A stretch of 64,000 bases of DNA, taken from assembly GCA_002923315.1 (NCBI GenBank), contig BEHM01000002.1:73838-137837 (forward strand). The letters are read 5' to 3'. The DNA is from a bacterium HR10 (GTDB lineage: Bacteria > Acidobacteriota > Blastocatellia > HR10). Below the pieces are notes generated by a model. That model was not told where the DNA came from. It saw only the letters and a program-made list of their open reading frames with translations, and did no database searches. Below are positions 13,754 through 35,887 of the stretch, piece by piece. Numbering within the stretch: position 1 is the stretch's first letter; the number at the start of each line of letters is the position of its first letter. Both the position numbers and the translations under genes were made by a program.

Positions 13754-13805
13754 GGCATCTCACTCCTGTCCTGAAGGGGCTGATCATCCTTCATGCTTCT
13801 CTTCC

Positions 13806-14003: not shown

Positions 14004-14010
14004 AGATCCC

Positions 14011-15081: not shown

Positions 15082-15807
15082 GTGTGCCCTCCCACTCCAA
15101 TCTCGACAGGGGGAGACAACGTGACTCACCCCCTGGAAGGATTACCAATGGGCTGGGAGTGTGTGACTGGGGTCAAAGGAGAACAATGGGAGGGCTTCTC
15201 TCACTGAGGTCTTGAGTGAATAGGCGCCAGCACGAACTTCGGGGACTCTCTTTCCCAGCCCGAAGCTTCGGCAGAGGAGTGACGAACGCAAGATGCGCTG
15301 TACCGTGGATGGCCGCTGCTCGGTGGGGGCCAGTGGCGAGATCATTCGCCTTAGGAAGAGGGCCAAGCTGATCCCCCTCAAAGGGCGACCATGGGGAGAA
15401 CGCATGTTCGCTCGTTCGATCAGCGAAGGCGGGTCCTATCGCCGGGGGCGCGATGAGTATCCCATTTGGCGAGAGGAAAAAGCGAGCACAATACAGGGTC
15501 GCGCTGATCGCCGCGAGAAGGACGAGCCTTCGACCGATCCACAGATTCAGCACGTACTGCAGTATATCACACTCCTCTACCACGAGCAAATTCGCCAGCC
15601 GTCGCCTTTTGTCATGCGACGAGCTCGGCCTGGTGCTCAAAAGAAGGTTTCTCCCCCGAAGAGACACGGAGTATAATCCTTGCCTTGGCGATGGAGTCCG
15701 CCGGGAACCGCCTCGAAGGGATTCGGGGCTGATGACTCCTACTTGGGCCGTTCCAAGTGGGAGTCTTTTGTTTTGGTGTCCTGGCGAGGCTGGGGAGGGA
15801 GGAAACG

Positions 15808-16215
15808 ATGGTCTTCTTCTGCCCGGGATGCTGGCGGGAGGTGGACGCTGGGTGTCGCATCTGTCCGAGCTGTGAGATGGACATCGCGCGGTACTCGCGC
15901 TCGGCGCGCTATGTGGAGAAGCTCATTTCGGCGTTGCACCATCTGGAACCTCAGACGGTGAGGCGCGCTGCCTGGATTTTGGGCCGGTTGAAGGCTCGCG
16001 AAGCTGTTCCCGCGCTGCTGGACTTGGCAGATCGGACTGCAGACCCCTACGTGATTGAATCGGTGGTGGAAGCACTCGGGGAGATCGGGGACATGCGCGC
16101 GCGGCCGTTTCTGATCCGCTGTGTGACGCAGGGGGCGTTGCGCGTGAGGCGGGCGGCGGAACGAGCGCTCGCGCAGTTTCCGCGAGAGGAGGGTGGCGCT
16201 CATGGCCCTCAATGA
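15808..16215 (+). CDS. zinc-ribbon + HEAT-repeat protein
   Basis: ATG 15808 follows GGGAGGGAGG. MVFFCPGCWREVDAGCRICPSC forms a Cys4 ribbon. HEAT/PBS-lyase-like repeats follow (VRRAAWILGRLKAREAVPALLDL..., VIESVVEALGEIGDMRARPFL, VRRAAERAL). Confidence 0.7.
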   Translation: MVFFCPGCWREVDAGCRICPSCEMDIARYSRSARYVEKLISALHHLEPQTVRRAAWILGRLKAREAVPALLDLADRTADPYVIESVVEALGEIGDMRARPFLIRCVTQGALRVRRAAERALAQFPREEGGAHGPQ

Positions 16216-17367: not shown

Positions 17368-18390
17368 TCATGCGCTCGGCGTGAGGGGGCCTCCGTGGAA
17401 GCGAAAGACGGCGTAATCGGAATACAGATACGGCAGGTCAACGCACGCGCGCGAAAGCGGCGAACGCAGGAGAAGGCGGTCGGCCAAATTCAGGAAGAAG
17501 CGGAGGCGCCTGGTCTTCGGATACACGTTGAACCCCGGCAAAAGAGCCGTGAGGGTGAGCCCATGGGCCGCTGCCCACTCCTCGATCTCCGCCCATGAGC
17601 GACCGGCCAGCGCGCGCGAGCATCCCGTGAAGAGGTATGAGGTCGGCGCCTTGCGAAGGCACGCTTCGGCAGCCGAGAGGAAGAGCAGCATGTCCGGCAC
17701 GGCGTAGATCGGGTCGGTGATCACGATATCGTAGGCTTCTTTCAAGTCCTCCGGGAGAGGGCGTCGAAGGTCCACGCGCCGACAGGTGATGCGAAGCTGT
17801 CGCTCGCGCGCCGCTGCTGTGATCAGGCCGAGGACTTCGGGATCGAGATCAAGGACGGTGATCTCGTTCGGAAGCAGCAGAGCCAGTGCGACGCTCACAA
17901 AGTCGTCGTCGCCGAGGCAGAGGATCCGACGCTCCGCCGTTGCGTAGGAGCGGATCAACTCGGCGCGTTTCACGGTCGTGGCGGGCGTGCACGGGAGCTG
18001 ATGCAGCGCGTGCGACTTCACGCGCAAGCGCTTCTGCAGCGAGGCGATCACCTGCAGCGCCTCGGACGCTGACGGGGAGACCTCCTCGTCATGACGCTGC
18101 GCGAAGATCTCCCCTTGAGTGAAGAGCGCTTCCAGGAGCGCTTCATTCTCCGTCTCCACGAATGTCCGAATTTCATGAAACACGTGGTGCAAGCCCAGCC
18201 TTCGCGCCCAGCGCTTCGCTCGGTCGAGCGCGGCCTCCACGCGAGCGCGCTCGTGCCGGTCGTCGAAGCCGAGGGGCCGATGCAGCTGCGAGGCCGCCGG
18301 CGCTGTGATCAAAGCGCTTCTGCTCCGTCCCGATGAGTCGGATGCATCCGCAGAAGGTCCCGAGGAGACGTTCCGCCACTTGCGTTCCAT
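17368..18390 (-). CDS. BpsA/DUF43-family aminopropyltransferase-like protein (branched-chain polyamine synthase family)
   Basis: ILCLGDDDFVSVALALLLPNEITVLDLDPEVL...RRVDLRRPLPEDLKEAYDIVITDPIYAV parallels the GDDDLTSVAL...LDID...FDLRKPLP...FITDPP core of archaeal/Thermus BpsA as I remember it. The track ORF (to 18624) is over-extended into the LysE gene. ATG 18390 lies 2 nt after the LysE stop. Confidence 0.7.
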   Translation of the reverse strand: MERKWRNVSSGPSADASDSSGRSRSALITAPAASQLHRPLGFDDRHERARVEAALDRAKRWARRLGLHHVFHEIRTFVETENEALLEALFTQGEIFAQRHDEEVSPSASEALQVIASLQKRLRVKSHALHQLPCTPATTVKRAELIRSYATAERRILCLGDDDFVSVALALLLPNEITVLDLDPEVLGLITAAARERQLRITCRRVDLRRPLPEDLKEAYDIVITDPIYAVPDMLLFLSAAEACLRKAPTSYLFTGCSRALAGRSWAEIEEWAAAHGLTLTALLPGFNVYPKTRRLRFFLNLADRLLLRSPLSRACVDLPYLYSDYAVFRFHGGPLTPSA

Positions 18391-18392
18391 GC

Positions 18393-19043
18393 TCACAAAC
18401 GTTTCACCATGAGATACGCCCCCAATCCGATGAGCACAATTCCCATCCCCTGCGCCATGCGGTGTGCGATGGGCAGAGGGAATGGATGACGACGGAGCAG
18501 TTCGCGAAGTGCAGCGAACCACGCTCCGACTCCGATGCTCGCGCCGATGGCGAAGCATATCCGGTGGGTCAGCAATGCGATCGTCGGAGCTGTCGCTCGC
18601 AGGGTGAGCGCCGTGCTGAACCAAAAGGCGACGAATGCCGGATTCAGCACGTAGAGAGCAGCGCCGAGGGCCGCTGCGGCCACCGCCTTTCGCATGCGCC
18701 AGGCGACTGCTGGTGGAGACGGCGGCGCCGAACGGGGGATGAGCAAGGAAACCCCGTATCCGATCACGAGCGCGCAGGCGACGATCTCTACAGGGAGGGG
18801 GGGAGATGAGACAAGGGGAAGGCGACTCGAAGCCATCATCGAGAGAGCGGCGAAAGCGCAGCCGCCATCCAGTAGGGCGACGGTCGTACTAAGGACCAAA
18901 CCTTCTCGCTCCTGTCCACGAGTCATCATCATTGCGAAAGCCAGGTTAATCGGCCCAATGGGCATCGAGGACATCAGGCCGAGGACCGATCCGAGGCACA
19001 ACCATGCGACATATTCCATGCCCATACGACGGGTCGTAATCAT
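18393..19043 (-). CDS. LysE/RhtB-family exporter
   Basis: 216 aa, about 6 TM helices. The N-terminal SMPIGPINLAF resembles the P-G-P motif region of LysE translocators. Confidence 0.75.
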   Translation of the reverse strand: MITTRRMGMEYVAWLCLGSVLGLMSSMPIGPINLAFAMMMTRGQEREGLVLSTTVALLDGGCAFAALSMMASSRLPLVSSPPLPVEIVACALVIGYGVSLLIPRSAPPSPPAVAWRMRKAVAAAALGAALYVLNPAFVAFWFSTALTLRATAPTIALLTHRICFAIGASIGVGAWFAALRELLRRHPFPLPIAHRMAQGMGIVLIGLGAYLMVKRL

Positions 19044-19424
19044 ATCGCAGGCTCGCGCTCATGCTCAAGGGCATATCACTTGACGCATCCTCCGAGCGGG
19101 CGAGAGTCGAATCGTCTTTCGACGGAGTGAGGCAGTTTTGCCACCCTGCGGCAGAACGCCACAGCAGCGGGGAAGCGATGAGCGCCCGACCGTCCATGCC
19201 ATCGTCGCGTAACTCTTCGTGCGTGAGGGCCCTGCGTCTTTGTGCGAAGCACGGGCGATGCCGGGGCTCCTGCGGCACGCAAATTGCCAATGCCCATCAA
19301 TCGGGAAGGTGGGGAGAGCACGGACGGTAGGGAAGGGTCGAGTGAGGAGAATCATGACGCCCCCGCTCCTCCCTCGATCTCCTGCCGTCCGTCGCGCGAT
19401 GGACGAAGGTCGGGTGGACACGCC

Positions 19425-19458
19425 GGAGAGTCGCGCGCGCGACTCTCCTCTTTATTTT
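19425..19458 (+). terminator. strong intrinsic-terminator-like hairpin + T tract with no upstream plus-strand gene
   Basis: GGAGAGTCGC-gcgc-GCGACTCTCC (19425-19448; 10-bp perfect GC-rich stem) is followed by TCTTTATTTT (19449-19458). It ends immediately before the tatA SD GGAGGTG. Confidence 0.7.
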
Positions 19459-19469
19459 GGAGGTGCGAG

Positions 19470-19709
19470 ATGGTGTCTTTTCAATTCTCCTCCATCGGGT
19501 TGCCGGAGTTACTCCTCATCTTGATGATCGCGCTTCTGCTCTTCGGGACGAAGCGGCTGCCGGAATTAGGCAGTTCGCTCGGTCGCGCCATCAGCGAATT
19601 CAAACGCGGACTCTATGAGGAGACGCCGAAGGGGGCACTCTCGGGAAGCTCGGAGGAGCCTGTTGCAGAATCGCCGGAGAAGCGCCGTGATGTCTCCGCC
19701 TCATCTTGA
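19470..19709 (+). CDS. tatA: twin-arginine translocase subunit TatA/E
   Basis: MVSFQFSSIGLPELLLILMIALLLFGTKRLPELGSSLGRAISEFKRG: the canonical TM helix plus FGxK.LPE.G...G..I.EFK amphipathic helix. GGAGGTG lies upstream. The track ORF (from 19242) is over-extended. Confidence 0.9.
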   Translation: MVSFQFSSIGLPELLLILMIALLLFGTKRLPELGSSLGRAISEFKRGLYEETPKGALSGSSEEPVAESPEKRRDVSASS

Positions 19710-19914
19710 GGCGAAGGTGCCGTGGCGAAATGGACGATGGATGCCAGACCTGCCACAGGTGAAGGGAGTGCAGCGAAAGGGGGCGGTGATCCTAACCCGA
19801 AAGGCGATAAGGGGTTGCTTCCTGCGCGTTCTCATCATGACTTCGGCACACCGGTTGCTTTCTCTCAGTGAGGGCCCTGAAACGGGCCGAGATCAGAGAA
19901 AAGGAGGGAAGGAT

Positions 19915-20172
19915 ATGTCGAAGCTGTGGAAGATGCTGGCGACCGTTGTGGTCGTGATCTTCGGTGTGTCCGGCGCCTTCGCTCAAGCCGCATCGCAAAA
20001 GACGACGAAGCCGGCGGCGAAGGCGACGGCCACCCAGACGAGCGCCGCCCCAACGACGCCGACGCAGACTCCTGAGGCGAAGGAGACCAAGGCGAAGCAC
20101 AGGAAGGCCAAGAAGGCGAAGAAGGCTCAGAAGACGCCGTCTGAGTCCACGGAGTCTCGGAAGCCTCAGTAG
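19915..20172 (+). CDS. small secreted Lys/Thr/Ala-rich protein (hypothetical)
   Basis: AAGGAGGGAAGG lies upstream of ATG 19915. MSKLWKMLATVVVVIFGVSGAFAQA looks like a signal peptide, followed by a low-complexity basic tail (KAKHRKAKKAKKAQK). Confidence 0.6.
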   Translation: MSKLWKMLATVVVVIFGVSGAFAQAASQKTTKPAAKATATQTSAAPTTPTQTPEAKETKAKHRKAKKAKKAQKTPSESTESRKPQ

Positions 20173-20258
20173 GCGGCGCGCCTGAAGTTGGAGGGAGCGG
20201 GGGAACGGTGGAGTTCTTCCGCTCCTCGCTTTATCAGGGGGGGCGCTGGTGAGACGCT

Positions 20259-21002
20259 ATGCGCGGACGGCTCATGTACCTGGCGGCAGCGGGGGGATGC
20301 TTTCTCCTAGCGGGTGTCGTTCTCTGGCACCACCTCCGAACACCCTCTCCGCGGGGCGGGAGACCATTGTCTGAAGCGGGGGTCTCCAACGCCTCGGTGA
20401 GAGAGGGAGCGCTGACGTTCGACGGTCGGCGAGCGCTTGAGGAGTTGGATGCGCTCCTTGACGCCGTGGAAGAGGAGGATTGGGCGCGCGCGCGGGCGCA
20501 TTTCAGCGAATTCGAACGGATCGCGCGAGCGCTCCCCTCGCCCGGATTGACGCATCCCGATGTCTCCTTCGCCCTCATGGACTTCTTCCACCTCTATCGG
20601 GTGCAACTTGAGCGCGCGCTCTCGGCCGAGGATTCAGCGGGAGCGATGTTCGCGGGCAATCAGTTGGGCGATATTGTATGGGACTTGCGCGTCCAGTTGG
20701 GGCGGGCGCCTCTGCCAGAGCTTGGGCGGCTTCGGTATCTCGAACGCGATCTCCGATATTGGAGTGAGATGGGGGATGAGCAGATGATCCGCGCGCGAGT
20801 CCGCGGTCTGGAGCGGACGTGGACCAGTCTCCGTCCGGTCGTCGCCAGCGGCCGCGGGCGAGAGTTGGTGGAACGCTTCGATGAGCTGCTGGAGCAGTTG
20901 CGGGCAGCGCGCGCGGTGGAAGAATATCGGGAGATTGCTCCAGAGCTGGAGGATATCGTTCAACAGGTTGAAGCGCATTTCTCCGAGCGGGGCGTTCGAT
21001 GA
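20259..21002 (+). CDS. membrane-anchored helical hypothetical protein
   Basis: 247 aa with an N-terminal TM helix (YLAAAGGCFLLAGVVLW). The rest looks helical. No family recognised. Confidence 0.55.
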   Translation: MRGRLMYLAAAGGCFLLAGVVLWHHLRTPSPRGGRPLSEAGVSNASVREGALTFDGRRALEELDALLDAVEEEDWARARAHFSEFERIARALPSPGLTHPDVSFALMDFFHLYRVQLERALSAEDSAGAMFAGNQLGDIVWDLRVQLGRAPLPELGRLRYLERDLRYWSEMGDEQMIRARVRGLERTWTSLRPVVASGRGRELVERFDELLEQLRAARAVEEYREIAPELEDIVQQVEAHFSERGVR

Positions 21003-21628
21003 AACTTCCGTTCGTGCCCAAGCTGATCGGATGGGTCCTGGTGGGGAGGCTCATTGGCCTCATCGGTGGGCTGGCGGCGCCCGTACCGGAGGCCGACGGA
21101 TCGTCCCCTGGCTTCGCCGCATCGGTCCTCGCCGATTTCGATGAGGATATGCACCCGGACCTGGCGCTCGCTCGGTATGAGCGACGCGGGTATCGGATCG
21201 AGGTGCATCTGAGTCGAAGGCAGAGGGAGATCTCGCTTCGTGTCCCCGCGCGCGAGTGGGGGATGATTCTGCTGGCCCTCGATGTCAATCGGGATGCGCA
21301 CCTGGATCTTGTGGCAGCGAACGCGCATCTTGTGCGTCCGTTGGCGATCTGGCTCGGCGATGGGCATGGCCACTTTCAACACGGGAGAGTGCGCGGGTGG
21401 GTATCCTCGCTCTTGCAAGCCGCGGGATATACGAAAGCTCCAGCCCGAGACCCTGACGTCTCTCTGACCTCCGAAGACCGATGGCCCTTCGATCACCCGC
21501 TCTGGAGATTCGCGAGAAATGCTCCAGAGGGTTCCATTCTCGCCTCCGCAGGGGCAGCCGCCCCTGACCTGCGTCTTCCTCATCCCTGCTTTGGTCGAAG
21601 CCCTCCTGAAAGACCTGTGTGCTTGTGA
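20999..21628 (+). CDS. hypothetical protein with FG-GAP-like motifs
   Basis: 4-nt overlap with the previous gene. N-terminal TM helix; ADFDEDMHPDLALA and LDVNRDAHLDLVAAN resemble FG-GAP Ca-binding loops. Confidence 0.5.
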   Translation: MKLPFVPKLIGWVLVGRLIGLIGGLAAPVPEADGSSPGFAASVLADFDEDMHPDLALARYERRGYRIEVHLSRRQREISLRVPAREWGMILLALDVNRDAHLDLVAANAHLVRPLAIWLGDGHGHFQHGRVRGWVSSLLQAAGYTKAPARDPDVSLTSEDRWPFDHPLWRFARNAPEGSILASAGAAAPDLRLPHPCFGRSPPERPVCL

Positions 21629-21722
21629 GTGCTCATCAGAGGAGCGCTTCGTTCAAGCGACATTCTTCGGAACGCTCTTTTCCCCAGGGAGTACGCGGGG
21701 GGGTACTTTCAGGAGGGACGAG

Positions 21723-23111
21723 ATGCGGGTCGTTCTCGCCGATATCAAGGGGCGTGATGGATTCGTCGCGAAGGACACGATCGCCGGGGGATATGGATCG
21801 CGATTTCGAGGAACCTCATGGACGACGCGGTTCGTGGAGCGGATGCTGCGAATTTATAACAACCTGCCGAGCATTCAGCTCGGCTATCTGGCGGCGATCT
21901 TCGCGCAGGCGGGGCATGAGGTCGTGATCTCGCGGGGCGAGCTTGTTGCCGGAGACCTCGCGCTGGTTTTGACCTCGATGGTGGATTTCCGAAATGAGAT
22001 CAGTTGGGCGGAGGCCGTCCGTCGGCAATTTGGAATGCCCGTGGGGTTCTTCGGGACATTCGCCACGTATAGGCCTGACCTGCTCGATGAGCATGGGGAC
22101 TTCGTCATTCAGGGAGAGCCCGAACAGGCCGCGATGCGCTTGGCCCGGGGGGAACGGTTGCGGGGGATCGTCGCCAGTCCTCCGCTGCCGGACCTGGACG
22201 AGTTGCCCTTTCCCCGATGGGACCTCTTTCCCCGCGAGCGTTTCGGGCATGCCATCGAGCGTCCGTTCTGGTTCACGCGCCGGGCCTTTCCCATCCTGTC
22301 GAGCCGAAGCTGCCCCGAATTCTGCACCTATTGCCCGCATCGCATCGTCGCGTCCTATCGGGCGCGCAGCCCGGAGAACGTTCTCGCGGAGATCGAGGCG
22401 TTGTGCCGGCGCTATGGCCGGGTCTATCTCGTCTTTCGCGATCCCATCTTCACCGCTGATCGAGAACGCGCGCTGCGGATCGCCGAGGGGATCATTCGCC
22501 GGAATTTGCCCGTTCGCTTCGAATGCGAGACGCGCCTCGATGATCTGGACGAGGAACTACTTCGATGGCTCCATCGCGCGGGCTTGCGCTCGGTCCGATT
22601 CGGCGTCGAATCCGTGGATGCGCTCACGCTCAAACGGGTGGGCCGCCGACCGATTCCGCCGGAGCACCAGCGAGAGATCGTCTCGCTCTGCCGACGGAAA
22701 GGGATTGTGACCCACGCTTTTTACGTCCTCGGCTTTTTGACCGATACGGTCGAGACGATTCGGGCGACGATCGAATATGCCGTGGCGCTCAACACGACGT
22801 TCGCCCTCTTCAAGATTTTGACGCCCTATCCCGGTACGCCGCTCTATCGTCAGATGGCCCGGCTCATCACCGAGAACGATCTGGAGAAATTCGATGGCTA
22901 TACGCCCACGTTTCGGCATCCGACGCTCAGGCACGAGCAATTGATCTTCCTGCTGGAGACGGCTTATTCGCGGTTCTACGTTCGTCCCTCGTGGTTGTGG
23001 ACCTACTTGCGATTGCCGATGTCGGGATTATTCGAGCGTCTGCTGAGCTGGGCCGATGCGTATGCCGAGCGTCGGCATCTGGAGGTCGAAGCGGCGCTCT
23101 TTCCAGGATAG
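21723..23111 (+). CDS. class-B-like (B12-binding-domain type) radical SAM enzyme
   Basis: ATG 21723 follows GGAGGGACGAG. SSRSCPEFCTYCPH is the CxxxCxxC radical-SAM cluster motif. The N-terminal IAGGYGSRFRG...LGYLAAIF region resembles the HpnJ/BchE-like class. The track ORF from 21519 is over-extended. Confidence 0.8.
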   Translation: MRVVLADIKGRDGFVAKDTIAGGYGSRFRGTSWTTRFVERMLRIYNNLPSIQLGYLAAIFAQAGHEVVISRGELVAGDLALVLTSMVDFRNEISWAEAVRRQFGMPVGFFGTFATYRPDLLDEHGDFVIQGEPEQAAMRLARGERLRGIVASPPLPDLDELPFPRWDLFPRERFGHAIERPFWFTRRAFPILSSRSCPEFCTYCPHRIVASYRARSPENVLAEIEALCRRYGRVYLVFRDPIFTADRERALRIAEGIIRRNLPVRFECETRLDDLDEELLRWLHRAGLRSVRFGVESVDALTLKRVGRRPIPPEHQREIVSLCRRKGIVTHAFYVLGFLTDTVETIRATIEYAVALNTTFALFKILTPYPGTPLYRQMARLITENDLEKFDGYTPTFRHPTLRHEQLIFLLETAYSRFYVRPSWLWTYLRLPMSGLFERLLSWADAYAERRHLEVEAALFPG

Positions 23112-23133
23112 GGCGGGGAGGAGGTGACGTCTC

Positions 23134-24426
23134 GTGTTTCGGACGATTGCGCGCTATGGGGCCCGACAAGCGCCGGGCGCGTGGCGCGCGGCCATGCGGG
23201 CGCTTCTCTCGGGACAAGGAGTTCGCGGCCCGGCCATTCGAGAGTTCGAAGAACGATTCGCCGCCTATCATGGTGTGCGGCAGGCCATCGCGGCGTCATA
23301 CGGGCGGATGGCCTTTTACTACATCCTGCGGGCGCTGGACCTGCCTGAGGGATCGGAGATTCTCATCCCGGCGCTCACCTTCTGGGTCGTGCCGGAGATG
23401 GCGCGCGTGGCCGGACTCAGGCCGGTCTTCGTAGACGTTGATCCGCGCACCTACACGCTCGATCCTCAGGATATGGCCCGGGCGATCACCGAGCGCACAC
23501 GGGTGGTCGTTCCCACGCACCTTTACGGTCAGCCGTGCGACATGGAGCCGATCCTTCGCCTCGCCGAACGTCATGATCTTTGGGTCATCGAGGATTGCGC
23601 GCACGCGCTCGGGGCGACCTATCGCGGTCGCAAAGTCGGGACCTTCGGCCACGCGGCCTTCTTCAGCTTCCAGCTCCTCAAGGGGTTGAACACGTACGGC
23701 GGCGGCATGGCCATTACCGATGATGATGCGCTCGCGCAGCGCATCCGCCGCCTGGCGGAAGCCGAACCGTGGCCGTCGGCGCTCTCAGTCCTGGGGAAGC
23801 TCGTGCTCGGATGGCTGCAGCAGGTCTTCATCAGTCCGCGCGGTTTCACCTTCAGCTTGTTTCCCGTGTTTTGGCTCGCTTCTCTCGTGGGCGATCGGGA
23901 TGTCTCGGCCTTTCTCTGGGAGAAGATCCGACGACTGGATCCGCTGCCTGCCTCTTATCGTCGCCGGTACAGCAATGCGCAGGCCGTGATCGGGTTGCGG
24001 GCGCTGGATTATGTCGAGGAGTGGAACGCCCGCAGTCGGCAATACGCGCGCCGATTGAGCGAGGGATTGGCGGGGATGGCATCGCTCGCGCTGCCGCATC
24101 CGTTGCCGGAGACCGAGCCCGTTTACTACCAGTATTGCATTCGCGTGTCCGATCCGGAGGCGCTGACGCGTCGCGCCCTTCGACGCGGGATTGACATCGA
24201 GATGATGCACGTGGACATCTGCACGACGCTCCCGCTCTTCGCATCGGAGGCCCGTCCATGCCCGGTCGCCGAGACGGCCGTCGAGACGCGACAGTTGCCC
24301 GTGTATTCGGGGCTGCATCCGAGCGACGTCGAACGCATCGTTCGCGTCATTCGGGAAATCGGTCGCGATCTGCCGCCGCTCGGCATCCCGGCGCAGGAGG
24401 TCGCCGCTCATGGACGCTTCGATTGA
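23134..24426 (+). CDS. DegT/DnrJ/EryC1/StrS-family sugar aminotransferase
   Basis: GTG start after GGGGAGGAGG. The fold-type-I sugar aminotransferase pattern is present: FEERFAAYHGVRQAIAASYGRMAFYYILRAL...VVPTHLYGQPCDM...VIEDCAHALGATYRGRKVGTFGHAAFFSFQLLKGLNTYGGGM. Confidence 0.8.
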   Translation: MFRTIARYGARQAPGAWRAAMRALLSGQGVRGPAIREFEERFAAYHGVRQAIAASYGRMAFYYILRALDLPEGSEILIPALTFWVVPEMARVAGLRPVFVDVDPRTYTLDPQDMARAITERTRVVVPTHLYGQPCDMEPILRLAERHDLWVIEDCAHALGATYRGRKVGTFGHAAFFSFQLLKGLNTYGGGMAITDDDALAQRIRRLAEAEPWPSALSVLGKLVLGWLQQVFISPRGFTFSLFPVFWLASLVGDRDVSAFLWEKIRRLDPLPASYRRRYSNAQAVIGLRALDYVEEWNARSRQYARRLSEGLAGMASLALPHPLPETEPVYYQYCIRVSDPEALTRRALRRGIDIEMMHVDICTTLPLFASEARPCPVAETAVETRQLPVYSGLHPSDVERIVRVIREIGRDLPPLGIPAQEVAAHGRFD

Positions 24427-25042
24427 GTCACATATTCGCGCCTATGGCTATTGGGGCGTTTTCCTCTGGGCCGTTTTGGGCGGAGAGGAGAGCGTGGTCG
24501 TCGCCGTCTGGTTGGTGAAGAGGGGACTGTTGAATCTGCCGGGCGTCATCGTGGCGGCGGCCCTCGGAGGAGCGGCAGGAGATCAGATCTATTTCTTTCT
24601 GGCGCGGCGATACGGATGGTCGCGGCTCCGCCGCTCGGCGCGATTCCGACGGTCGCGCGAGAGGGCCGAGGCGTTAGTCGCGCGCTATGGGCCAGGCGTC
24701 GTTCTGGCGTCGCGATTTCTCGCCGGACTTCGGATCACGATCCCGCTGGTCTGTGGAACGTTGGGGATGCCCGCGCTCACGTATAGTGTGCTGAATCTGG
24801 TGAGCGCGTTCCTCTGGGCCTCGTTCTACAGCTTGGCGGTGGCGTCTCTGTGGTCGGCCTGGACATCGCCGGCGCGACGCCTGTGGGTGGTGGGCGCCGT
24901 CATCGCCCTCCTCGCGCTCGTCTTCCTGATCCGGTTTTGGCGAGCGCGCGGGGCGCACAGGCGCTCAAGCATGCCCGCGTGTCGCACTTCGCCCGACGCC
25001 GGCGAGGAGGAAGAATCTCGTGTGGGAATTCGTGCTGGCTAA
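24410..25042 (+). CDS. DedA/SNARE-associated family membrane protein
   Basis: 210 aa. YGYWGVFLWAVLGGE..., RYGPGVVLASRFLAGLRITIPLVCG are typical of DedA. Overlaps the DegT stop by 17 nt. Confidence 0.75.
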   Translation: MDASIESHIRAYGYWGVFLWAVLGGEESVVVAVWLVKRGLLNLPGVIVAAALGGAAGDQIYFFLARRYGWSRLRRSARFRRSRERAEALVARYGPGVVLASRFLAGLRITIPLVCGTLGMPALTYSVLNLVSAFLWASFYSLAVASLWSAWTSPARRLWVVGAVIALLALVFLIRFWRARGAHRRSSMPACRTSPDAGEEEESRVGIRAG

Positions 25043-26123
25043 TTTTCGGAGCCGACCCGTGCGAGCGCTTCTCAGCATCGGGAGCGTCGCGCTCGGTGTG
25101 GCGCTCGTTCTTCTCTTCGCCGGACTGGCCGATGGAGAGATCCGCGAACGCGCCGAGCGGGATCAGCAGATCGGAGCTGAATTGATTGTCTATTCCTCAC
25201 AGGCCGGAGCGTTCGGCATGTTGGGTCTGCCGCTCTCGCTCCCCGTCGCGTATGCGACGTCGCTCGGAGAGATCGAAGGGGTGAAGGAGGTCACGCCGGT
25301 GGGGTATCTCGTTCAGGAAGGCGTTGGGGGAACCGGATTTCGAGCCATCGAGGGAATTGATCCCGATTCGTATGCGCGGACGAGCGGCCTTCGAATCATC
25401 GTCGGCCGGCCCCTGATGTTCGAGGACGATGCCCTCGTTGATCCCTCTCATGCGCGCGCACACGGAATCAGTGTGGGGGATCGAATAGACGTCCTGGGTC
25501 GCCCGTTTCGGGTCGTGGGGATTTTCGCGCCGGAGATGGGAGCGCGCGTGAAGGTCCGCCTCACCGCTCTCCAAAAGCTGCGAGGGACTCCCGAGCGGTG
25601 TTCATTCTTCTTGATCAAGTGCGTTCGGCCGGAGGCCGCGCCCCTGGTGGCCGAGCGGGTGAGTCGCCGCTTCCCGGAGTTTCGCCTCGTCTTCACGCAG
25701 GATCTGCCGCGAGTGTACCGTCAGAGCGTTCCGGCGCTCGATGTCTTCCTCCGGGTGCTGGTGGGAGTGGCGTCGCTCATCGGGGGGCTCAGTGTCTTCG
25801 TCGTCATGTATGCTGCCGTCAGCGAGCGCACGCACGAGATCGGGCTGTTGAAATCTCTCGGAGCGTCCCGACGGTGGATCATGAGAATCGTTCTGCAAGA
25901 GGCGTTCGGGCTGGGACTCGTGGGCACTCTGCTGGGGGTGGGCGTGTCCTGGGGCGCAGGGGGACTCATCATGCGCACGACCTCGTTGAGTTTCCATGTC
26001 GAAGGGCGGTGGATGCTAATCGCCGCCCTGATGGGAGTGGGGAGTTGTCTCCTGGGGTCGTTCTATCCCGCCGTTCGGGCGGCCAGGTTGGATCCCGTAG
26101 TCGCGCTCGCGAAAACGACCTGA
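25020..26123 (+). CDS. FtsX/MacB-type ABC transporter permease (no ATPase partner in operon)
   Basis: N-terminal TM helix, a periplasmic MacB-like core, then the C-terminal FtsX domain EIGLLKSLGASRRWIMRIVLQEAFGLGLVG...FYPAVRAARLDPVVAL. Confidence 0.8.
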   Translation: MWEFVLANFRSRPVRALLSIGSVALGVALVLLFAGLADGEIRERAERDQQIGAELIVYSSQAGAFGMLGLPLSLPVAYATSLGEIEGVKEVTPVGYLVQEGVGGTGFRAIEGIDPDSYARTSGLRIIVGRPLMFEDDALVDPSHARAHGISVGDRIDVLGRPFRVVGIFAPEMGARVKVRLTALQKLRGTPERCSFFLIKCVRPEAAPLVAERVSRRFPEFRLVFTQDLPRVYRQSVPALDVFLRVLVGVASLIGGLSVFVVMYAAVSERTHEIGLLKSLGASRRWIMRIVLQEAFGLGLVGTLLGVGVSWGAGGLIMRTTSLSFHVEGRWMLIAALMGVGSCLLGSFYPAVRAARLDPVVALAKTT

Positions 26124-26153
26124 GGATGAGGGGCGCGAGCAGGTGCTGAAAGG

Positions 26154-27071
26154 ATGTGCGCGATCCGCATCGAGGTGCCATCAGGAGGGCGCGTCGTGGG
26201 GAAGTATCTGATCGTCACGGCCGATGACTTCGGGCTCACGCCGGGCATCAATCGGGCGATCCTTCAGGCTCATGCCGAGGGGATCGTGACGGGCGCGAGC
26301 CTGATGGCCGTGGGCCCGGCATTCGAGGATGCTCTTGTTCGGGCGCGATCCGCTCGGCGATTGGGTCTCGGCGTGCATCTGGTGTGGGTGGATGAGCGTC
26401 CTGTCTCTCCTGCCGAGAAGATTCCCACGCTCGTGAATGCTCACGGGCGATTCCATTCGGTGAGGGGGTTCCTGCTTCGCCTTCAGCTCGGCTTCATCCG
26501 TCGAGATGATCTGGAGCGGGAGACGCGCGCGCAACTTGAGCGGGTGCTCGAGGCCGGAATCCGACCGACGCATGTCGACAGCCACAAGCATCTGCACGTC
26601 CTTCCCCTTCTGCGTGACCTCGTCCTTCGCCTGCTTCCGGAGTATGGGATCCGCGCGATGCGGCTGCCTCAGGAGCGTGTTCCTTTCTCCGTCTCGCGGG
26701 CCGTGGGGCGGGCATGGCCTCGGGCTCTCGCTGTGACGTGGCTGGCCGAACGGGGGCGTCGCACGCTCAGTGAAGCAGGGGTCTTCTTTCCCGATCGTTT
26801 CTTCGGGCTCTTTCACACGGGCGCTCTCACGGAGCCGGTTCTTCTGGCGATCGTGAGGCACCTGCCGGAGGGGGTGAGCGAACTGATGTGCCATCCCGGT
26901 TTTGTGGACGAGGCCTTGCGCGCGGTGCGCACGCGGCTTCGCTCCTGTCGGGAGGAGGAAGTGCGCGCCCTCACGAGCCCGTTCGTCCGAGACGAAATTC
27001 GGCGAAGAGGAGTTCGCCTGGTGACGTATGAAGAGGCCGCTGAGCGACACAGAATGGGAGCGTTCGTCTGA
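26154..27071 (+). CDS. YdjC/ChbG/HpnK/NaxD-family carbohydrate deacetylase
   Basis: YLIVTADDFGLTPGINRAILQAHAEGIVTGASLM...GVHL...THVDSHKHLH are hallmark YdjC-family motifs. Confidence 0.85.
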   Translation: MCAIRIEVPSGGRVVGKYLIVTADDFGLTPGINRAILQAHAEGIVTGASLMAVGPAFEDALVRARSARRLGLGVHLVWVDERPVSPAEKIPTLVNAHGRFHSVRGFLLRLQLGFIRRDDLERETRAQLERVLEAGIRPTHVDSHKHLHVLPLLRDLVLRLLPEYGIRAMRLPQERVPFSVSRAVGRAWPRALAVTWLAERGRRTLSEAGVFFPDRFFGLFHTGALTEPVLLAIVRHLPEGVSELMCHPGFVDEALRAVRTRLRSCREEEVRALTSPFVRDEIRRRGVRLVTYEEAAERHRMGAFV

Positions 27072-28107
27072 GCCCACGGCGATCCGCTATTCCCTCGTTG
27101 TTCCTCTCCGCGATGAGGAGGGGAACGTGGAGGCGTTGTGGGAGGAAGTGACCGCTGTCATGGAGGGTCTGGGCGAGCCCTATGAGCTGATCCTCGTGGA
27201 TGATGGAAGCACGGATGGGACGTATGAGCGGCTGGTGAGCCTCTGCGAGCGGGATGCGCGCGTACGGGTCCTTCGGCTGAGCCGGAACTTCGGGCAGACG
27301 GCGGCCCTGGCGGCGGGATTCGATTTCGCGCGGGGGGAGATCATCATCGCCATGGATGGGGATTTGCAATATGATCCGCGCGACATTCCGCGTCTGCTGC
27401 ACAAGCTCAACGAGGGATACGATCTCGTCAGCGGATGGCGTGAGAAGCGATCGGATGCCTGGCTGACCCGCCGCCTTCCCTCGCGCGTCGCCAACTGGCT
27501 GGCAGCACAAGTGTCGGGCGTGCCCTTGAAGGATTTCGGCTCGACATTCAAGGCCTATCGGCGAGAGGCGCTGGCTGAGATTCGCCTCTATAGCGAGCAA
27601 CATCGGTTCATTCCGGCGCTCGTCAGTCAATGGCGGGATCGCTTCGCCGAAGTCCCCGTGCGCGTGCGGCCCCGTCGGTGGGGGCGCTCCAAATACGGCC
27701 TCTCGCGCACGCTGCGCGTGACGTTCGATCTGCTGACGATCGCCTTCCTGCTGCGCTATCTCGCCCATCCCCTTCGTCTGTTCGGAAGCTGGGGAGTCGC
27801 GATGCTGCTCGGCGGCCTCGGGCTGGACGGGTACCTTGTGGGGGAGAAGCTCTGGCGCCACATCTCGATCATGGAGCAACACGGCCCGCTCCTTCTGTTG
27901 AGCGTCTTGCTCATCGTCACCGGGGGGCAACTGATCTCGCTCGGACTGCTCGGCGAGATCCTCTCGCGGACGTACTTCGAGTCGCAGCGGAAGCCGATCT
28001 ACTCGATTCGGGAGATCCGCACGCGGAGGCCCGAATCTCCTGTGGGAGAACCGATGCTGCAGGACGGGGAGACCATCCCTTCGTCTCGCGCGTCGTGCTC
28101 CACGTGA
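27028..28107 (+). CDS. GT2 polyprenyl-phosphate glycosyltransferase (DPM1/GtrB/ArnC/FlmF2-like)
   Basis: YSLVVPLRDEEGNV...LILVDDGSTDGT...LSRNFGQTAALAAGF...IIAMDGDLQYDP (DxD) ...DLVSGWR. Two C-terminal TM helices are present, as in GtrB/ArnC-type enzymes. Confidence 0.85.
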   Translation: MKRPLSDTEWERSSEPTAIRYSLVVPLRDEEGNVEALWEEVTAVMEGLGEPYELILVDDGSTDGTYERLVSLCERDARVRVLRLSRNFGQTAALAAGFDFARGEIIIAMDGDLQYDPRDIPRLLHKLNEGYDLVSGWREKRSDAWLTRRLPSRVANWLAAQVSGVPLKDFGSTFKAYRREALAEIRLYSEQHRFIPALVSQWRDRFAEVPVRVRPRRWGRSKYGLSRTLRVTFDLLTIAFLLRYLAHPLRLFGSWGVAMLLGGLGLDGYLVGEKLWRHISIMEQHGPLLLLSVLLIVTGGQLISLGLLGEILSRTYFESQRKPIYSIREIRTRRPESPVGEPMLQDGETIPSSRASCST

Positions 28108-28113
28108 TGTCCG

Positions 28114-29508
28114 TCAGGAATCTGCGCTCGCTCGTTCCAAGGGGATGCCGAAGCGTTCAGCCATGCGGTAGAGCGTGCGCCGATCAATGCCCAGGATCTC
28201 AGCCGCGCGGCTCCGGTTGCCCTTGACGGCCTCGAGGACGTAGAGCAGGTAGCGGCGCTCCAACTCGTCGAGCGAGGGGAGGTCGTGAAAGAGCCGGGCT
28301 TCCAGCGTCATTGAGGTGCGTGCTCGTGTGAGGTGGGGCATAGCGGACCGGACGCGTTCTGGCAAGTCTTCGGGCGTGATCAATCCTCCGCGCGCGTGGA
28401 TGACAGCGTATTCGATGCTGTTCTCCAGCTCGCGGACATTTCCCGGCCAGGAATAGGCCATGAGCATTTCGAGAGCGGCGGGAGAGAAGGCGAGCGTGCG
28501 TTCCGTTCGCTGGAGAGCGCGTCGGAGGAAATAGGCCGCCAGCAGCGGGATATCCTCGCGACGCTCGCGCAAGGGGGGAACGCGCAAGGTCACGACGCTC
28601 AGGCGGTAATAGAGGTCCTCGCGGAAGCGCCCAGCCTGGACCTCCTCCTCCAGATGACGATTCGTCGCGGCGATCACGCGCACGTCCACGCGGCGGGTTC
28701 GCGTCTCGCCGACGCGTTTGATCTCGCCCTCCTGCAAGACGCGGAGCAGCTTCACCTGCAAGGCGGGGGTCGTCTCGCTGATCTCATCCAGGAAGATTGT
28801 CCCTCCGTGGGCTTCCTCAAAGAGCCCCTTCTTATCGGCGACGGCGCCGGTGAAGCTGCCCCGCATGTGGCCGAAGAGTTCCGCTTCGAGCAGCGTCTCT
28901 GTCAGGGCGCCACAATTGACGGCGACGAAGGGGCGCGACGCGCGCGGGCTGTGCTGATGGATGGCGCGAGCGATCAGTTCCTTCCCCGTCCCCGACTCTC
29001 CCACAATCAGCACAGTCGAAGAGGTCGGCGCCACGCGCGCGATCTCTTTGTACAGCTCGATCATCCGTGGGGTGCGGCCGATGAGGCCGGAGGCCTCATA
29101 AGGTTTGAGCGCACTCTCCAGCAGGTCTTCTCCCCGCGCCGGCTCGCGCGGATGGAGGGCGCGGCGCACGGTCGCCCGCACATCCTCGACGGTGAACGGC
29201 TTGGAGATGACATCGAAAGCGCCTTCCCGCAACGCTTCGATGGCGGCTTCCAGCGTCCCGAAGCCGGTGATCAGGATGACTTCCGTGCGAGGCGATCGGT
29301 CTTTGCATGCCTTGAGCACGTCTAGACCCGTTCGCGGTTCGTTCAGATTCAGGTCGACGAGGGCGCAATCGAAAGGTTCGCGGTCCAGAAGGGCCAGCGC
29401 ACCCTCGGCGGATTGGGTCGCCTCCACCGACCAGCCCTCGGTGGAGAGGATTTCGATGAGGAATTCGCAGGTCTCTCGATCATCATCCACGACGAGGATT
29501 CGCTTCAT
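28114..29508 (-). CDS. sigma-54-dependent response regulator (NtrC family)
   Basis: MKRILVVDDD receiver domain; AAA+ region with GESGTGKE, EAELFGHMRGSFTGA (GAFTGA-type loop) and VRVIAATN; C-terminal HTH AAEILGIDRRTLYRM. The ATG overlaps the kinase stop (ATGA). Confidence 0.9.
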   Translation of the reverse strand: MKRILVVDDDRETCEFLIEILSTEGWSVEATQSAEGALALLDREPFDCALVDLNLNEPRTGLDVLKACKDRSPRTEVILITGFGTLEAAIEALREGAFDVISKPFTVEDVRATVRRALHPREPARGEDLLESALKPYEASGLIGRTPRMIELYKEIARVAPTSSTVLIVGESGTGKELIARAIHQHSPRASRPFVAVNCGALTETLLEAELFGHMRGSFTGAVADKKGLFEEAHGGTIFLDEISETTPALQVKLLRVLQEGEIKRVGETRTRRVDVRVIAATNRHLEEEVQAGRFREDLYYRLSVVTLRVPPLRERREDIPLLAAYFLRRALQRTERTLAFSPAALEMLMAYSWPGNVRELENSIEYAVIHARGGLITPEDLPERVRSAMPHLTRARTSMTLEARLFHDLPSLDELERRYLLYVLEAVKGNRSRAAEILGIDRRTLYRMAERFGIPLERASADS

Positions 29509-31091
29509 GTTCCTTCCTCCAAGGCCGAGCATCGCGTCGTCAGGGCGGGGAAGGTAAGGCGCACGCGCGTGCCCCGTCCGGGTTCGCTGTGCACGGTGAT
29601 CTCGCCCTCATGCTCTCGGACGATGTGCCGCACGATGGAGAGGCCGAGTCCACTCCCCATCCCCTCCGGCTTCGTCGTGAAGAAGGGTTCGAAGATGCGG
29701 GGCAGGATGTCGGGGCTTATTCCGATGCCTGTGTCCTCGCATTCGATCGAGACCGTTCCATCCTCTTCAGCGAACGCGCGAAGGATCAAGCGCCCACCCT
29801 CGGGCATCGCATCGAGGCTATTATCAATCAGGTTGATGAGCACCTGCTGCAGGTGTTCGGGCGAGCCGAGGATCTCCGGCAGATCGGGAGTGACCTCTGT
29901 GATCAGCTCGATTCCGCGACTCTCCAAGGTCGGAGCGATAATTTCAGCCACCTGCTGTAGCAGCGGCTCCAACTGAAGGGGCTGGCGCTCCGGTCGCGGT
30001 CTCCGCGTGGAATCGAGCAGGCGGCGCACGATGCGTTCGATGCGCTCGATCTGTCCGAGGATGATGGTGAGCCGACGGATCCCCTCCTCATCGTGCGTGC
30101 GGGCGCGCAGCAGTTGGATATGCCCGGAGATGAGGTTGAGCGGCGTTCCAATCTCGTGGGCGAATTGCGTGGCCAGCTGACCCGCCGCCGCCCATCGCTC
30201 CATCTGCAGGAGCTGGCGTTGGAGCGCGAAGAGCTGACGATTCGCCTCCTGGAGCTGCCGATTCCGCTCGCTCAGCTCCGCCGTCGCCTCGCGCACGAGC
30301 GCTTGCAACCGATCTTGCTCCGCCTCCAGGGCTTCTGTCATCTGTTGAACGCGAGCGAGCAGGGCATTCAGCCCCAGGCTCACCGCACCCATCTCATCCG
30401 GAGAGCGCACGGGGACACGCGCCTGAAGATCCCCCGCCTCCGCTCGATGCATGGTGTGGAGGATCGCGCGGATCGGTCGGTAGATCAATCGGCGGAAGAG
30501 CAAATGCAGGGACAGGGTGATTCCCCCGACGGCCATCAGGAGAGCGAGCCAGGTGAGACGGTGCACGCGCTTGAGCAAGGCCTTATAGTCCGACAGCTCT
30601 GCGCGCACCAAGACGAACCCGATGAGCTTGCCGTCGCTCTCGATAGGCGCTCCGGCAGCGACCCGATAGCTTCCCTTGTTCTCCCGCTCGAGGCGAGAGC
30701 GAACTCTTCCTCCCTGGACCTCACCCAGCAGATCGAGGGGGACGGCGCTCTCGGCCGTCCCCACCGGGAAGGTGACGATCTCCCGCACCCCCGAGCGCGT
30801 CAGACCGTAGATATGGATCTCTGTGATCTCGCCATGCGCCCGCTGGTAGTAGAGGGCATCATTGCGCAGCGCGGCCAGATCCATCGCTTGTTCTGAAGAG
30901 AGATGCTGCGCCAGTTGCGCGGCCAAGAGCTCCGCGCGCCGCCGGTTCTCCTCAGCGATCAGCGTCCGGGTCGTCGAGAGATAGATCGAGAGGAGGGCGC
31001 CGAAGATCACCAGGACCAGGGCGACGATCGAGAGGGCGACCTTTGTGTGGAGGCTGAGCGGACGGAGGCGTTCTCGGAACGGCTCGCTCAT
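29505..31091 (-). CDS. sensor histidine kinase (TM-sensor-HAMP-coiled coil-HisKA-HATPase)
   Basis: H-box FAHEIGTPLN; N/G boxes LINLIDNSLDAM, DTGIGISPD, GSGLGLSIV. The start is either ATG 31091 (MSEPFRERL...) or the track start at 31154. Confidence 0.85.
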   Translation of the reverse strand: MSEPFRERLRPLSLHTKVALSIVALVLVIFGALLSIYLSTTRTLIAEENRRRAELLAAQLAQHLSSEQAMDLAALRNDALYYQRAHGEITEIHIYGLTRSGVREIVTFPVGTAESAVPLDLLGEVQGGRVRSRLERENKGSYRVAAGAPIESDGKLIGFVLVRAELSDYKALLKRVHRLTWLALLMAVGGITLSLHLLFRRLIYRPIRAILHTMHRAEAGDLQARVPVRSPDEMGAVSLGLNALLARVQQMTEALEAEQDRLQALVREATAELSERNRQLQEANRQLFALQRQLLQMERWAAAGQLATQFAHEIGTPLNLISGHIQLLRARTHDEEGIRRLTIILGQIERIERIVRRLLDSTRRPRPERQPLQLEPLLQQVAEIIAPTLESRGIELITEVTPDLPEILGSPEHLQQVLINLIDNSLDAMPEGGRLILRAFAEEDGTVSIECEDTGIGISPDILPRIFEPFFTTKPEGMGSGLGLSIVRHIVREHEGEITVHSEPGRGTRVRLTFPALTTRCSALEEGT

Positions 31092-31104
31092 ACGGCTCTC
31101 AATT

Positions 31105-31133
31105 TTAGCAAAAGCGCGCCGATCGTGTATAAT
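31105..31133 (+). promoter_or_regulatory. candidate sigma-70-type promoter of rtcB
   Basis: TTAGCA (31105-31110), 17 nt, TATAAT (31128-31133). It lies 32 nt upstream of ATG 31166, which is preceded by AAGGGGGG. Confidence 0.4.
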
Positions 31134-31165
31134 TGTGTCTTCAGCAGGAGACAAGGGGGGTCACC

Positions 31166-35654: not shown

Positions 35655-35887
35655 ATCCCCTCCTCCTTGCTGGTTTGGCTCAGAGTGTACGCGCGTTCAA
35701 AGGAGAGTCAATCGGCCAAAGGGAGTATTTTGAGCTCCGGCGAAAGGAGTAGAGAGCGACTCCATATACGGTTCACCGGTCGCGTTTGAGAAGCAACCCG
35801 GGCGATGCCGGTCGTGGCGGGGAGACCTGATATAATTGAGCCTCTCCTGTCTGGAGCTATCACGTGGCGGGGGCGGGGAGAGTGCAT

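Follow-up and report, generated by a model that had tools for sequence, protein, structure and literature searches.

What does a bacterium make when a single run of overlapping genes encodes a radical S-adenosylmethionine (SAM) enzyme, a sugar aminotransferase, a DedA protein, a lone permease, a carbohydrate deacetylase and a polyprenyl-phosphate glycosyltransferase? The question is raised by positions 21723 to 28107 of a 64,000-nucleotide stretch of the genome of bacterium HR10 (assembly GCA_002923315.1, contig BEHM01000002.1), referred to here as the window. The source organism is an uncultured thermophile, and the closest named relatives of the operon genes are Acidobacteriota, a group which is among the most abundant of soil bacteria and whose envelope chemistry is almost unknown. 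Three of the six genes belong to a module that is widespread and conserved in this phylum. By analogy with the Arn and NaxD systems, and with slightly less than even confidence, we read the operon as an envelope-modification pathway acting on polyprenyl phosphate, in which an AprD4-like radical SAM enzyme and a DegT aminotransferase would add an extra amino group to the sugar.

Gene order and the conserved core

The six open reading frames (ORFs) are tightly packed on the forward strand and encode, in order, the radical SAM enzyme (rSAM; 21723-23111, 462 aa, AprD4/HpnJ-like with a degenerate B12-like N-terminal domain), a DegT/DnrJ/EryC1-type pyridoxal phosphate-dependent aminotransferase (23134-24426, 430 aa), a DedA/VTT-domain membrane protein (24410-25042, 210 aa), a MacB/FtsX-type permease (25020-26123, 367 aa), a YdjC-family carbohydrate deacetylase (26154-27071) and an ArnC/GtrB-type polyprenyl-phosphate glycosyltransferase of family 2 (GT2; 27028-28107). 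Pfam supports each of the six domain assignments made in an earlier note on this DNA (Radical_SAM 65 bits, DegT 267, VTT/DedA 55, MacB_PCD and FtsX 54 and 74, YdjC 247, Glycos_transf_2 113), and the ORF listing agrees with the co-directional arrangement which that note described, with gaps of at most 30 nt or overlaps; from rSAM to GT2 the junctions are a gap of 22 nt, overlaps of 17 and 23 nt, a gap of 30 nt and an overlap of 44 nt. The ATG of rSAM at 21723 is preceded by an AGGAGG ribosome-binding site, and a longer ORF starting at 21519 is an unlikely alternative. Gene callers used for public assemblies prefer a later start for YdjC (26196) and at times for GT2 (27127), so the overlap between these two hinges on the starts chosen. 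The same six-gene order occurs in independent assemblies (L086, L171 and L170, the last a 1.0-Mb contig) and in 'bacterium HR08', in which DegT (GBC76838) to GT2 (GBC76842) span five consecutive accession numbers. The layout is thus not an assembly artefact, and the six genes form a genuine operon.

A scan for relatives of rSAM in one genome of each species gave at least 592 loci, the best 80 of which are almost all from Acidobacteriota (Vicinamibacterales, Pyrinomonadaceae, gp5, gp6, gp18, Bryobacteraceae and Terriglobia). Synteny was counted over the 57 orthologous loci with an rSAM at least 45% identical and enough downstream sequence. DegT lies directly downstream and co-directional in 47 of these (82%), DedA lies within 7 kb downstream in 47 (82%), and both are found in 41. 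Upstream, a small FG-GAP-repeat protein like that of the window (X3, described below) directly precedes rSAM in 28 of the 67 loci with enough upstream sequence, as judged with a hidden Markov model built from its homologues. The conserved module is therefore (FG-GAP)-rSAM-DegT-DedA, and it is widespread in Acidobacteriota, hundreds of whose genomes carry it; we found no published description of the rSAM-DegT-DedA module in the literature searched. The adjacency of rSAM and DegT and the accompanying DedA would fit two consecutive steps together with a step at the membrane.

The remaining genes of the operon have a narrower distribution. Locus L004, with an rSAM 80% identical to that of the window, reads X2-X3-rSAM-DegT-DedA-YdjC-GT2 in overlapping genes whose proteins are 66-80% identical to ours (X2 being a further upstream gene), and FtsX is missing from this otherwise collinear arrangement. 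Since the core is conserved alone and the YdjC-GT2 pair is conserved separately, the window operon is a lineage-specific fusion of the two, to which a FtsX permease has been added. The earlier note had looked to neighbourhood conservation to decide whether the juxtaposition was fortuitous: the rSAM-DegT-DedA core is indeed conserved, but the six genes do not behave as one unit.

The core is coupled to glycosyltransferases in other lineages as well. In locus L172 (rSAM 63% identical) a single operon encodes rSAM, DegT, DedA, an 841-aa fusion of Glycos_transf_2 and PMT/PMT_2 domains (13381-15906 of that locus) that is ArnC-ArnT-like, and an AsnB-like amidotransferase downstream of it. The window GT2 and the GT2 half of this fusion share 42-45% identity, and fusions of this kind are rare: among the 120 closest homologues of the window enzyme, all of about 320-390 aa, none is fused. 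The earlier note had suggested a lipid-linked aminosugar route, a general idea that holds and is strengthened by this operon. Locus L003 carries a GT-C glycosyltransferase gene (MptA_B/GT87) beside DedA and rSAM, together with LPG_synthase_TM and TP_0789-like genes, whilst gp5 and Terriglobia loci have a run of a PpgS/Dpm1-like GT2, PdxJ and DedA a few kilobases from rSAM, with AsmA-like and LolA-like genes also present. The common theme of the neighbours of the trio is envelope-lipid transport (TP_0789/LolA-like, AsmA-like, FtsX and LPG_synthase_TM genes). AsmA-like, PdxJ and LpxD genes were rejected as general neighbours, being confined to a few related loci, and a squalene-synthase neighbourhood was a one-off seen in L168 only.

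The component enzymes and the hopanoid question

The window rSAM carries the cluster motif CPEFCTYC (CX3CX2C), which is invariant across 16 homologues, and this motif together with a PF04055 core of 65 bits places it in the radical SAM superfamily. Its description in the earlier note as a B12-type enzyme is doubtful. The B12-binding domain PF02310 reaches 16.7 bits where its cut-off is 32.1 and is present in just 1 of the 120 top rSAM homologues, and the best structural match is to AprD4, which binds no cobalamin (PMC12931638); cobalamin dependence is not supported. The match to AprD4 was observed in two ways. A profile of the rSAM family compared with the PDB has AprD4 (6fd2) as its top match at 97 bits, and an AlphaFold2 model of rSAM (predicted local distance difference test score 82.6) has AprD4 as its best Foldseek match over the full length (template modelling scores 0.77/0.78, E 1e-22), compared with scores of about 0.6 for B12-dependent methylases. 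The two enzymes share a domain architecture with a non-cobalamin, Rossmann-like N-terminal domain, but they are only 22% identical in sequence and rSAM reaches 93 bits on the AprD4 model (NF033070) against a cut-off of 500, so it is AprD4-like rather than a member of that family. Higher NCBIfam scores were obtained with HpnJ (TIGR03471, 124.2 bits against a cut-off of 577.6) and BchE (121 bits), both again far short of the cut-off.

In the C3' deoxygenation of apramycin, AprD4 removes water from the 3',4'-diol of a glucosamine ring, and the resulting 4'-keto sugar is reduced by the partner enzyme AprD3 (PMC5461906). In the window the partner is an aminotransferase and not a reductase, and the context is that of an envelope glycoconjugate and not of an antibiotic. 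More distant rSAM homologues, 41-43% identical and from Patescibacteria, Elusimicrobia and an unclassified bacterium, are followed by a short-chain dehydrogenase/reductase (SDR)-type oxidoreductase gene instead of DegT, thus keeping a partner of the AprD3 kind, and in these three loci a polyprenyl-phosphate-type GT2 abuts the rSAM-SDR pair within a surface-glycan cluster. A carbonyl-forming rSAM whose product is either reduced (SDR) or aminated (DegT) explains both arrangements. Radical SAM enzymes that work hand in hand with DegT-family aminotransferases are familiar from BtrN/BtrS (2-deoxystreptamine) and DesI/DesII (desosamine), in which a sugar or cyclitol hydroxyl group is converted to an amine or deoxygenation proceeds via an amine. 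BtrN and DesII differ from the window enzyme in belonging to other radical SAM subfamilies, which are not among the matches of rSAM, and in having soluble substrates. As a separate observation, an Omnitrophota glycan cluster (L069, 307-13229) contains five radical SAM genes, three with clear B12-binding domains, interleaved with GT2, WecA-like, O-antigen-ligase and heptosyltransferase genes.

The window DegT has perosamine synthetases and DesV as its best solved relatives. The catalytic lysine is kept, FSFQLLK aligning with that of perosamine synthetase, and with 267 bits on PF01041 its place in the family is clear. Its C-terminal domain is only weakly similar to those of the solved relatives, and the ArnB model (NF008658) scores 172 bits against a cut-off of 631 and covers the N-terminal half only. 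An amphipathic, family-specific insertion of about 65 aa (about residues 208-274) is kept in all 58 of the 58 partner DegTs, and comparison with the PDB gave no homologous insertion in any solved structure. Judging from the sequence, the divergent C-terminus and the insertion are compatible with a non-nucleotide, possibly lipid-linked substrate. DedA is predicted to have four hydrophobic segments; it scores 55 bits on VTT_dom and 44 bits on the UptA model (NF052604), the cut-off of which is 250. No transmembrane segment is predicted in rSAM or in DegT.

The GT2 aligns with ArnC over its full length (NF007986; residues 20-330 against 7-311 of 316) at 192.2 bits, the cut-off being 529, and it has a C-terminal hydrophobic, transmembrane region; the architecture is thus ArnC-like without orthology. 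This alignment and the C-terminal transmembrane helices bear out the polyprenyl-phosphate type proposed in the earlier note. The GT2 gave no match to HpnI (TIGR03472) at E ≤ 0.001, its best match being ArnC; by comparison, an HpnI-like glycosyltransferase in locus L087 scores 285 bits on the HpnI model. A paralogue 65% identical to the window GT2 (P0166, L174 10001-11038) stands alone beside cysS in the same hot-spring community and carries the annotation 'bacterium HR10'; the operon GT2 may have arisen from it by a duplication specific to this lineage. The paralogue gives no clue to partner genes.

Homologues of the window YdjC in metagenomes are at most 45% identical to it. Of 80 metagenomic YdjC loci, an ArnC-like GT2 follows in 20 (four of which also have an HpnI-like glycosyltransferase), BshA follows in 12, and a run of FtsX, an HpnL-like gene and YdjC is found in 6-7. 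In the four loci combining YdjC, an ArnC-like GT2 and an HpnI-like glycosyltransferase (285 bits, just below the cut-off of 310) we see a combination which to our knowledge has not been described; the only one of these with an annotated neighbourhood, L087, has no further hopanoid gene nearby. In the 12 soil-metagenome loci in which YdjC stands directly ahead of BshA, the latter is a bona fide BshA (TIGR03999, 564 bits), and from this adjacency YdjC may replace BshB in a bacillithiol-like pathway.

The FtsX permease has four transmembrane segments, a loop of about 210 aa between the first and the second, and MacB-type permease features. As the earlier note had observed, it is a lone permease: scans of the operon and of the window gave no ABC ATPase. 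Its closest homologues among the loci compared (37-38% identity) are in the FtsX-HpnL-like-YdjC runs, and in locus L084 two FtsX genes stand ahead of the FG-GAP-rSAM pair. Five of these runs consist of a lone FtsX/MacB_PCD permease, an HpnL-like LPG_synthase_TM protein (116 bits, below the cut-off) and YdjC, with neither an ATPase nor a GT2; two further loci have the run without FtsX.

The HpnI/HpnK/HpnJ system likewise unites a glycosyltransferase with a YdjC deacetylase and with a radical SAM enzyme, class-B-like, whose substrate is a lipid-linked glucosamine, and the earlier note had named this as an alternative: a hopanoid side-chain cluster that would convert bacteriohopanetetrol to its glucosamine and cyclitol ether derivatives. 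On this reading the window would have an aminotransferase in addition. The alternative has in its favour that HpnJ is the top NCBIfam match of rSAM, that HpnJ likewise acts on deacetylated, lipid-linked glucosamine (PMC13459092), and that the window YdjC is marginally over the cut-off of the HpnK model (TIGR03473; 235.3 against 232.6 bits). However, rSAM falls some 450 bits short of the HpnJ cut-off, and the GT2 has no HpnI match because it is of the ArnC type. The HpnK score is not diagnostic either: the L004 orthologue is below the cut-off at 230.3 bits, YdjCs beside BshA, ArnC-like GT2 or HpnL-like genes receive 190-214, and a range of 190-230 bits for YdjCs outside a hopanoid setting (beside BshA or an ArnC-like GT2) indicates that the model is reporting general YdjC similarity. 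There are no shc or hpn genes in the 64-kb window, as the earlier note had said of hopanoid genes, and the trio abounds in two groups without hopanoids, Vicinamibacterales (subdivision 6) and Pyrinomonadaceae (subdivision 4); subdivisions 4 and 6 have neither shc nor bacteriohopanepolyols (PMC5462960). With model scores, window content and taxonomic distribution all against it, a hopanoid identity was ruled out as a working assignment; the hopanoid reading is very unlikely and largely refuted, and the product of the operon is probably an unusual cell-envelope amino sugar instead. If so, caution is called for before such clusters are labelled as hopanoid on the strength of HpnJ and HpnK matches, a point which matters for biomarker genomics.

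A proposed lipid-linked amino sugar pathway and its rivals

In the scheme that we favour, GT2 would transfer a hexose or N-acetylhexosamine from a uridine diphosphate (UDP)-sugar to polyprenyl phosphate at the cytoplasmic face of the membrane, and YdjC would, in this lineage, remove the N-acetyl group. The rSAM would then abstract a hydrogen from the sugar, and either dehydration of a vicinal diol, as with AprD4, or dehydrogenation of a hydroxyl group, as with BtrN, would give a keto sugar that DegT could transaminate to a (deoxy)diamino sugar. DedA would flip the lipid-linked product or recycle the carrier, the FtsX-type permease, X2, X3 and a small secreted protein encoded upstream may handle the product outside the membrane, and a GT-C enzyme encoded beyond the window would transfer the sugar to lipid A, lipopolysaccharide or another envelope acceptor. 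Gene order and its conservation, the domain identities, the likeness in fold to AprD4 and the links to polyprenyl-phosphate GT2 and GT-C genes in other lineages were observed directly; the substrates, the order of the steps and the acceptor are what we infer.

DedA proteins such as DbcA are required for the modification of lipid A with aminoarabinose, and the Arn system (ArnA/B/C/D/T/E/F) offers the closest overall logic: a polyprenyl-phosphate GT2, a DegT-type aminotransferase, a deacylase for the lipid-linked sugar, flipping across the membrane and a GT-C transferase, the last being seen here only in the relatives L172 and L003. However, the window has neither an ArnA-type NAD-dependent dehydrogenase/decarboxylase nor a formyltransferase, rSAM standing in that place; the deacylase is of the YdjC type and that of Arn of the ArnD type, and the equivalog scores are far under their cut-offs. 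The YdjC-GT2 pair is analogous to FlmF2/NaxD/FlmK of Francisella and LgmA/LgmC/LgmB of Bordetella, in which a GT2 makes polyprenyl-phosphate-N-acetylhexosamine and a YdjC-family enzyme deacetylates it, and so may do the same here; those systems lack the radical SAM enzyme, the aminotransferase, DedA and FtsX. The likeness to HpnI/HpnK/HpnJ, in turn, is limited by the ArnC-type GT2, the low HpnJ score and the presence of the trio in hopanoid-free lineages.

Several observations weigh against this pathway. The NCBIfam models place rSAM slightly nearer to HpnJ and BchE (124 and 121 bits) than to AprD4 (93 bits), so that ring contraction may take the place of dehydration, and the curated equivalog models for ArnC, ArnB, AprD4, HpnJ and UptA are all far under cut-off. 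Neither a GT-C transferase nor an ABC ATPase was found in the 64-kb window, as the earlier note had stated. YdjC and an ArnC-like GT2 lie within 10 kb of rSAM only in the lineage of the window, L004 included; rSAM, DegT and DedA occur in none of the 80 metagenomic YdjC loci; most genomes have the trio by itself, amid unrelated genes; and four orthologues, L084 among them, have no adjacent DegT. L172 lacks YdjC, from which it follows that deacetylation is no general requirement. Lastly, the same set of genes would serve equally well if rSAM and DegT worked on a UDP-sugar ahead of its loading onto the carrier.

This last point leads to the main rival, in which rSAM and DegT tailor a soluble UDP- or other nucleoside diphosphate (NDP)-sugar by deoxygenation and amination in the manner of DesI/DesII or AprD4/AprD3, and only the completed amino sugar follows the rest of the route: GT2 loads it onto polyprenyl phosphate, YdjC trims it and DedA flips it. 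The solved relatives of DegT all act on NDP-sugars or inososes, the substrate of AprD4 is soluble, rSAM and DegT both lack a transmembrane segment, and the distant rSAM homologues lie in O-antigen-type clusters with nucleotidyltransferase, 4,6-dehydratase-like and RmlD genes. However, nucleotide-sugar enzymes are entirely absent from the acidobacterial operons examined, DegT has its divergent C-terminal domain and unique amphipathic insertion, and so tight and conserved a coupling to DedA would not be expected of a purely cytosolic pair. We regard tailoring at the nucleotide-sugar stage as unlikely, though deserving serious consideration.

A further alternative arises from the distribution of the genes. 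The (FG-GAP)-rSAM-DegT-DedA module could act apart from the product of YdjC and GT2, for example by converting a hydroxyl group of a lipid head group to an amine, with FtsX and the YdjC-GT2 pair adjacent to it in this lineage only. Linkage between the two modules is lacking from nearly every genome, L004 does without FtsX, YdjC homologues turn up in settings of quite another kind, beside BshA or HpnL-like genes, and LPG_synthase-type lipid genes are near the trio in L003 and in one other locus. Such independence is difficult to reconcile with genes that overlap or abut and whose arrangement is kept in L004 at 66-80% protein identity, with the independent coupling of the trio in L172 to a GT2::GT-C fusion homologous to the window GT2, and with the distant rSAM homologues that likewise abut polyprenyl-phosphate GT2 genes. 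We therefore think it distinctly improbable.

Returning to the lipid-linked amino sugar pathway, all its components are of known families and the overall logic has precedents in Arn, NaxD and AprD4/AprD3; the interest lies in its wide spread across the phylum and in radical SAM chemistry that may take place on a carrier-bound sugar. There is a stronger version of the proposal, which we put forward as speculation that is unlikely to hold in full: that (FG-GAP)-rSAM-DegT-DedA is a previously unrecognised pathway across much of the Acidobacteriota, in which radical SAM chemistry takes place directly on a polyprenyl-phosphate-linked sugar, membrane-associated DegT aminates the product, and a new cationic (deoxy)diamino sugar is transferred by a GT-C enzyme to an outer-membrane glycolipid. 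If true, radical SAM chemistry would here act for the first time on a sugar bound to a lipid carrier, as a substitute for ArnA-type oxidation that uses a different cofactor. The conserved rSAM-aminotransferase-DedA module would define a new route to cationic envelope sugars, given its links in several lineages to polyprenyl-phosphate glycosyltransferases and to ArnT-like enzymes. Sugars of this kind bear on resistance to cationic peptides and to metals. Among cobalamin-free, 'class-B-like' radical SAM enzymes, of which AprD4 is so far the lone type, the module would represent a second functional class, and it would give DedA proteins a defined lipid-linked client.

Upstream genes, a candidate promoter and the flanking region

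The earlier note had begun the operon at 21723, but the run of genes begins about 1.8 kb further upstream and the transcription unit is probably longer than six genes, three more forward-strand genes preceding rSAM. The first (19916-20172) encodes an 85-aa secreted protein rich in Lys, Thr and Ala, with a ribosome-binding site and a signal-like hydrophobic N-terminus; it is called as a gene in public assemblies, its start is kept in L004, and a family search gave no match. The second, X2 (20259-21002), is a membrane-anchored helical protein with one N-terminal transmembrane segment; it has neither a Pfam nor an NCBIfam match, and the sole homologue found is that of L004 (68% identity). The third, X3 (20999-21628, 209 aa), is a small signal-anchored FG-GAP-repeat protein, FG-GAP_3 being barely over its cut-off (27 against 26.9 bits), and is the frequent rSAM partner counted above; X3-like proteins were also seen in L084 and in three other loci.

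The position of X3 raises the question of whether rSAM could modify this small protein in the manner of a ribosomally synthesised and post-translationally modified peptide (RiPP). A small protein is found directly upstream of rSAM in about 40% of loci, and there are weak matches to RiPP radical SAM models (ApyD, 77 bits). However, the FG-GAP protein is of about 200 aa, carries a signal anchor and has a predicted periplasmic location, whilst rSAM is cytosolic; the best structural match of rSAM is a sugar dehydratase, and DegT, DedA, GT2 and GT-C would be left unexplained. Protein or peptide maturation is thus highly implausible.

A sigma-54-type -24/-12 element, GGCACACCGGTTGC (19845-19858, forward strand), lies 57 nt upstream of the ATG at 19916 and is a candidate operon promoter. 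Exact GGCAC-N5-TTGC sites number two in the 64-kb window (19274 and 19845) against 0.45 expected, and both are conserved in position in L004, where the 19845 site stays in place although the surrounding spacer DNA has diverged. Convergent to the 3' end of the operon, on the reverse strand, are an NtrC-type sigma-54 activator (28114-29532; Sigma54_activat 244 bits, with Response_reg and HTH_8) and a HAMP histidine kinase (29505-31154; HAMP, HisKA and HATPase_c in Pfam), a pair of candidate regulators that adjoins the operon in L004 too (82% and 73% identity). From this arrangement operon expression is probably sigma-54 dependent by way of the adjacent two-component pair, which would act at this promoter. 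A scan of the operon for sigma-70 promoters and terminators gave nothing beyond the shuffled expectation, and an Rfam scan of 18900-28300 gave no match.

A tatA-like gene (about 19470-19709) stands downstream of the second sigma-54-type core, GGCACGCAAATTGC (19274-19287). This core precedes a leader of some 190 nt that is conserved with L004 and ends in a strong hairpin and T-run (19425-19448); the leader has no Rfam match and may be a small RNA or an attenuator.

The remainder of the window is mostly housekeeping (ribF, ispH, queC, an H+-PPase and the dcw cluster). Two large FG-GAP surface proteins flank the region, at 870-6122 (1750 aa, with SpaA-like domains) and 33264-35654 (796 aa, with DUF11), and together with X3 they make three FG-GAP proteins inside 35 kb. 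At 35864-38730 a gene of the UDP-glucose/GDP-mannose-dehydrogenase family is followed by that of a membrane-anchored 509-aa protein with DxDxDG-type repeats and a faint match to the alkaline-phosphatase superfamily (Phosphodiest), no family being above threshold. On the reverse strand, 17368-18624 encodes a protein with the BpsA_C domain of branched-chain polyamine synthase, which fits a thermophilic lifestyle; its neighbours are a gene for a LysE-like membrane protein and VIT1, the latter a gene call of the identical assembly L086.

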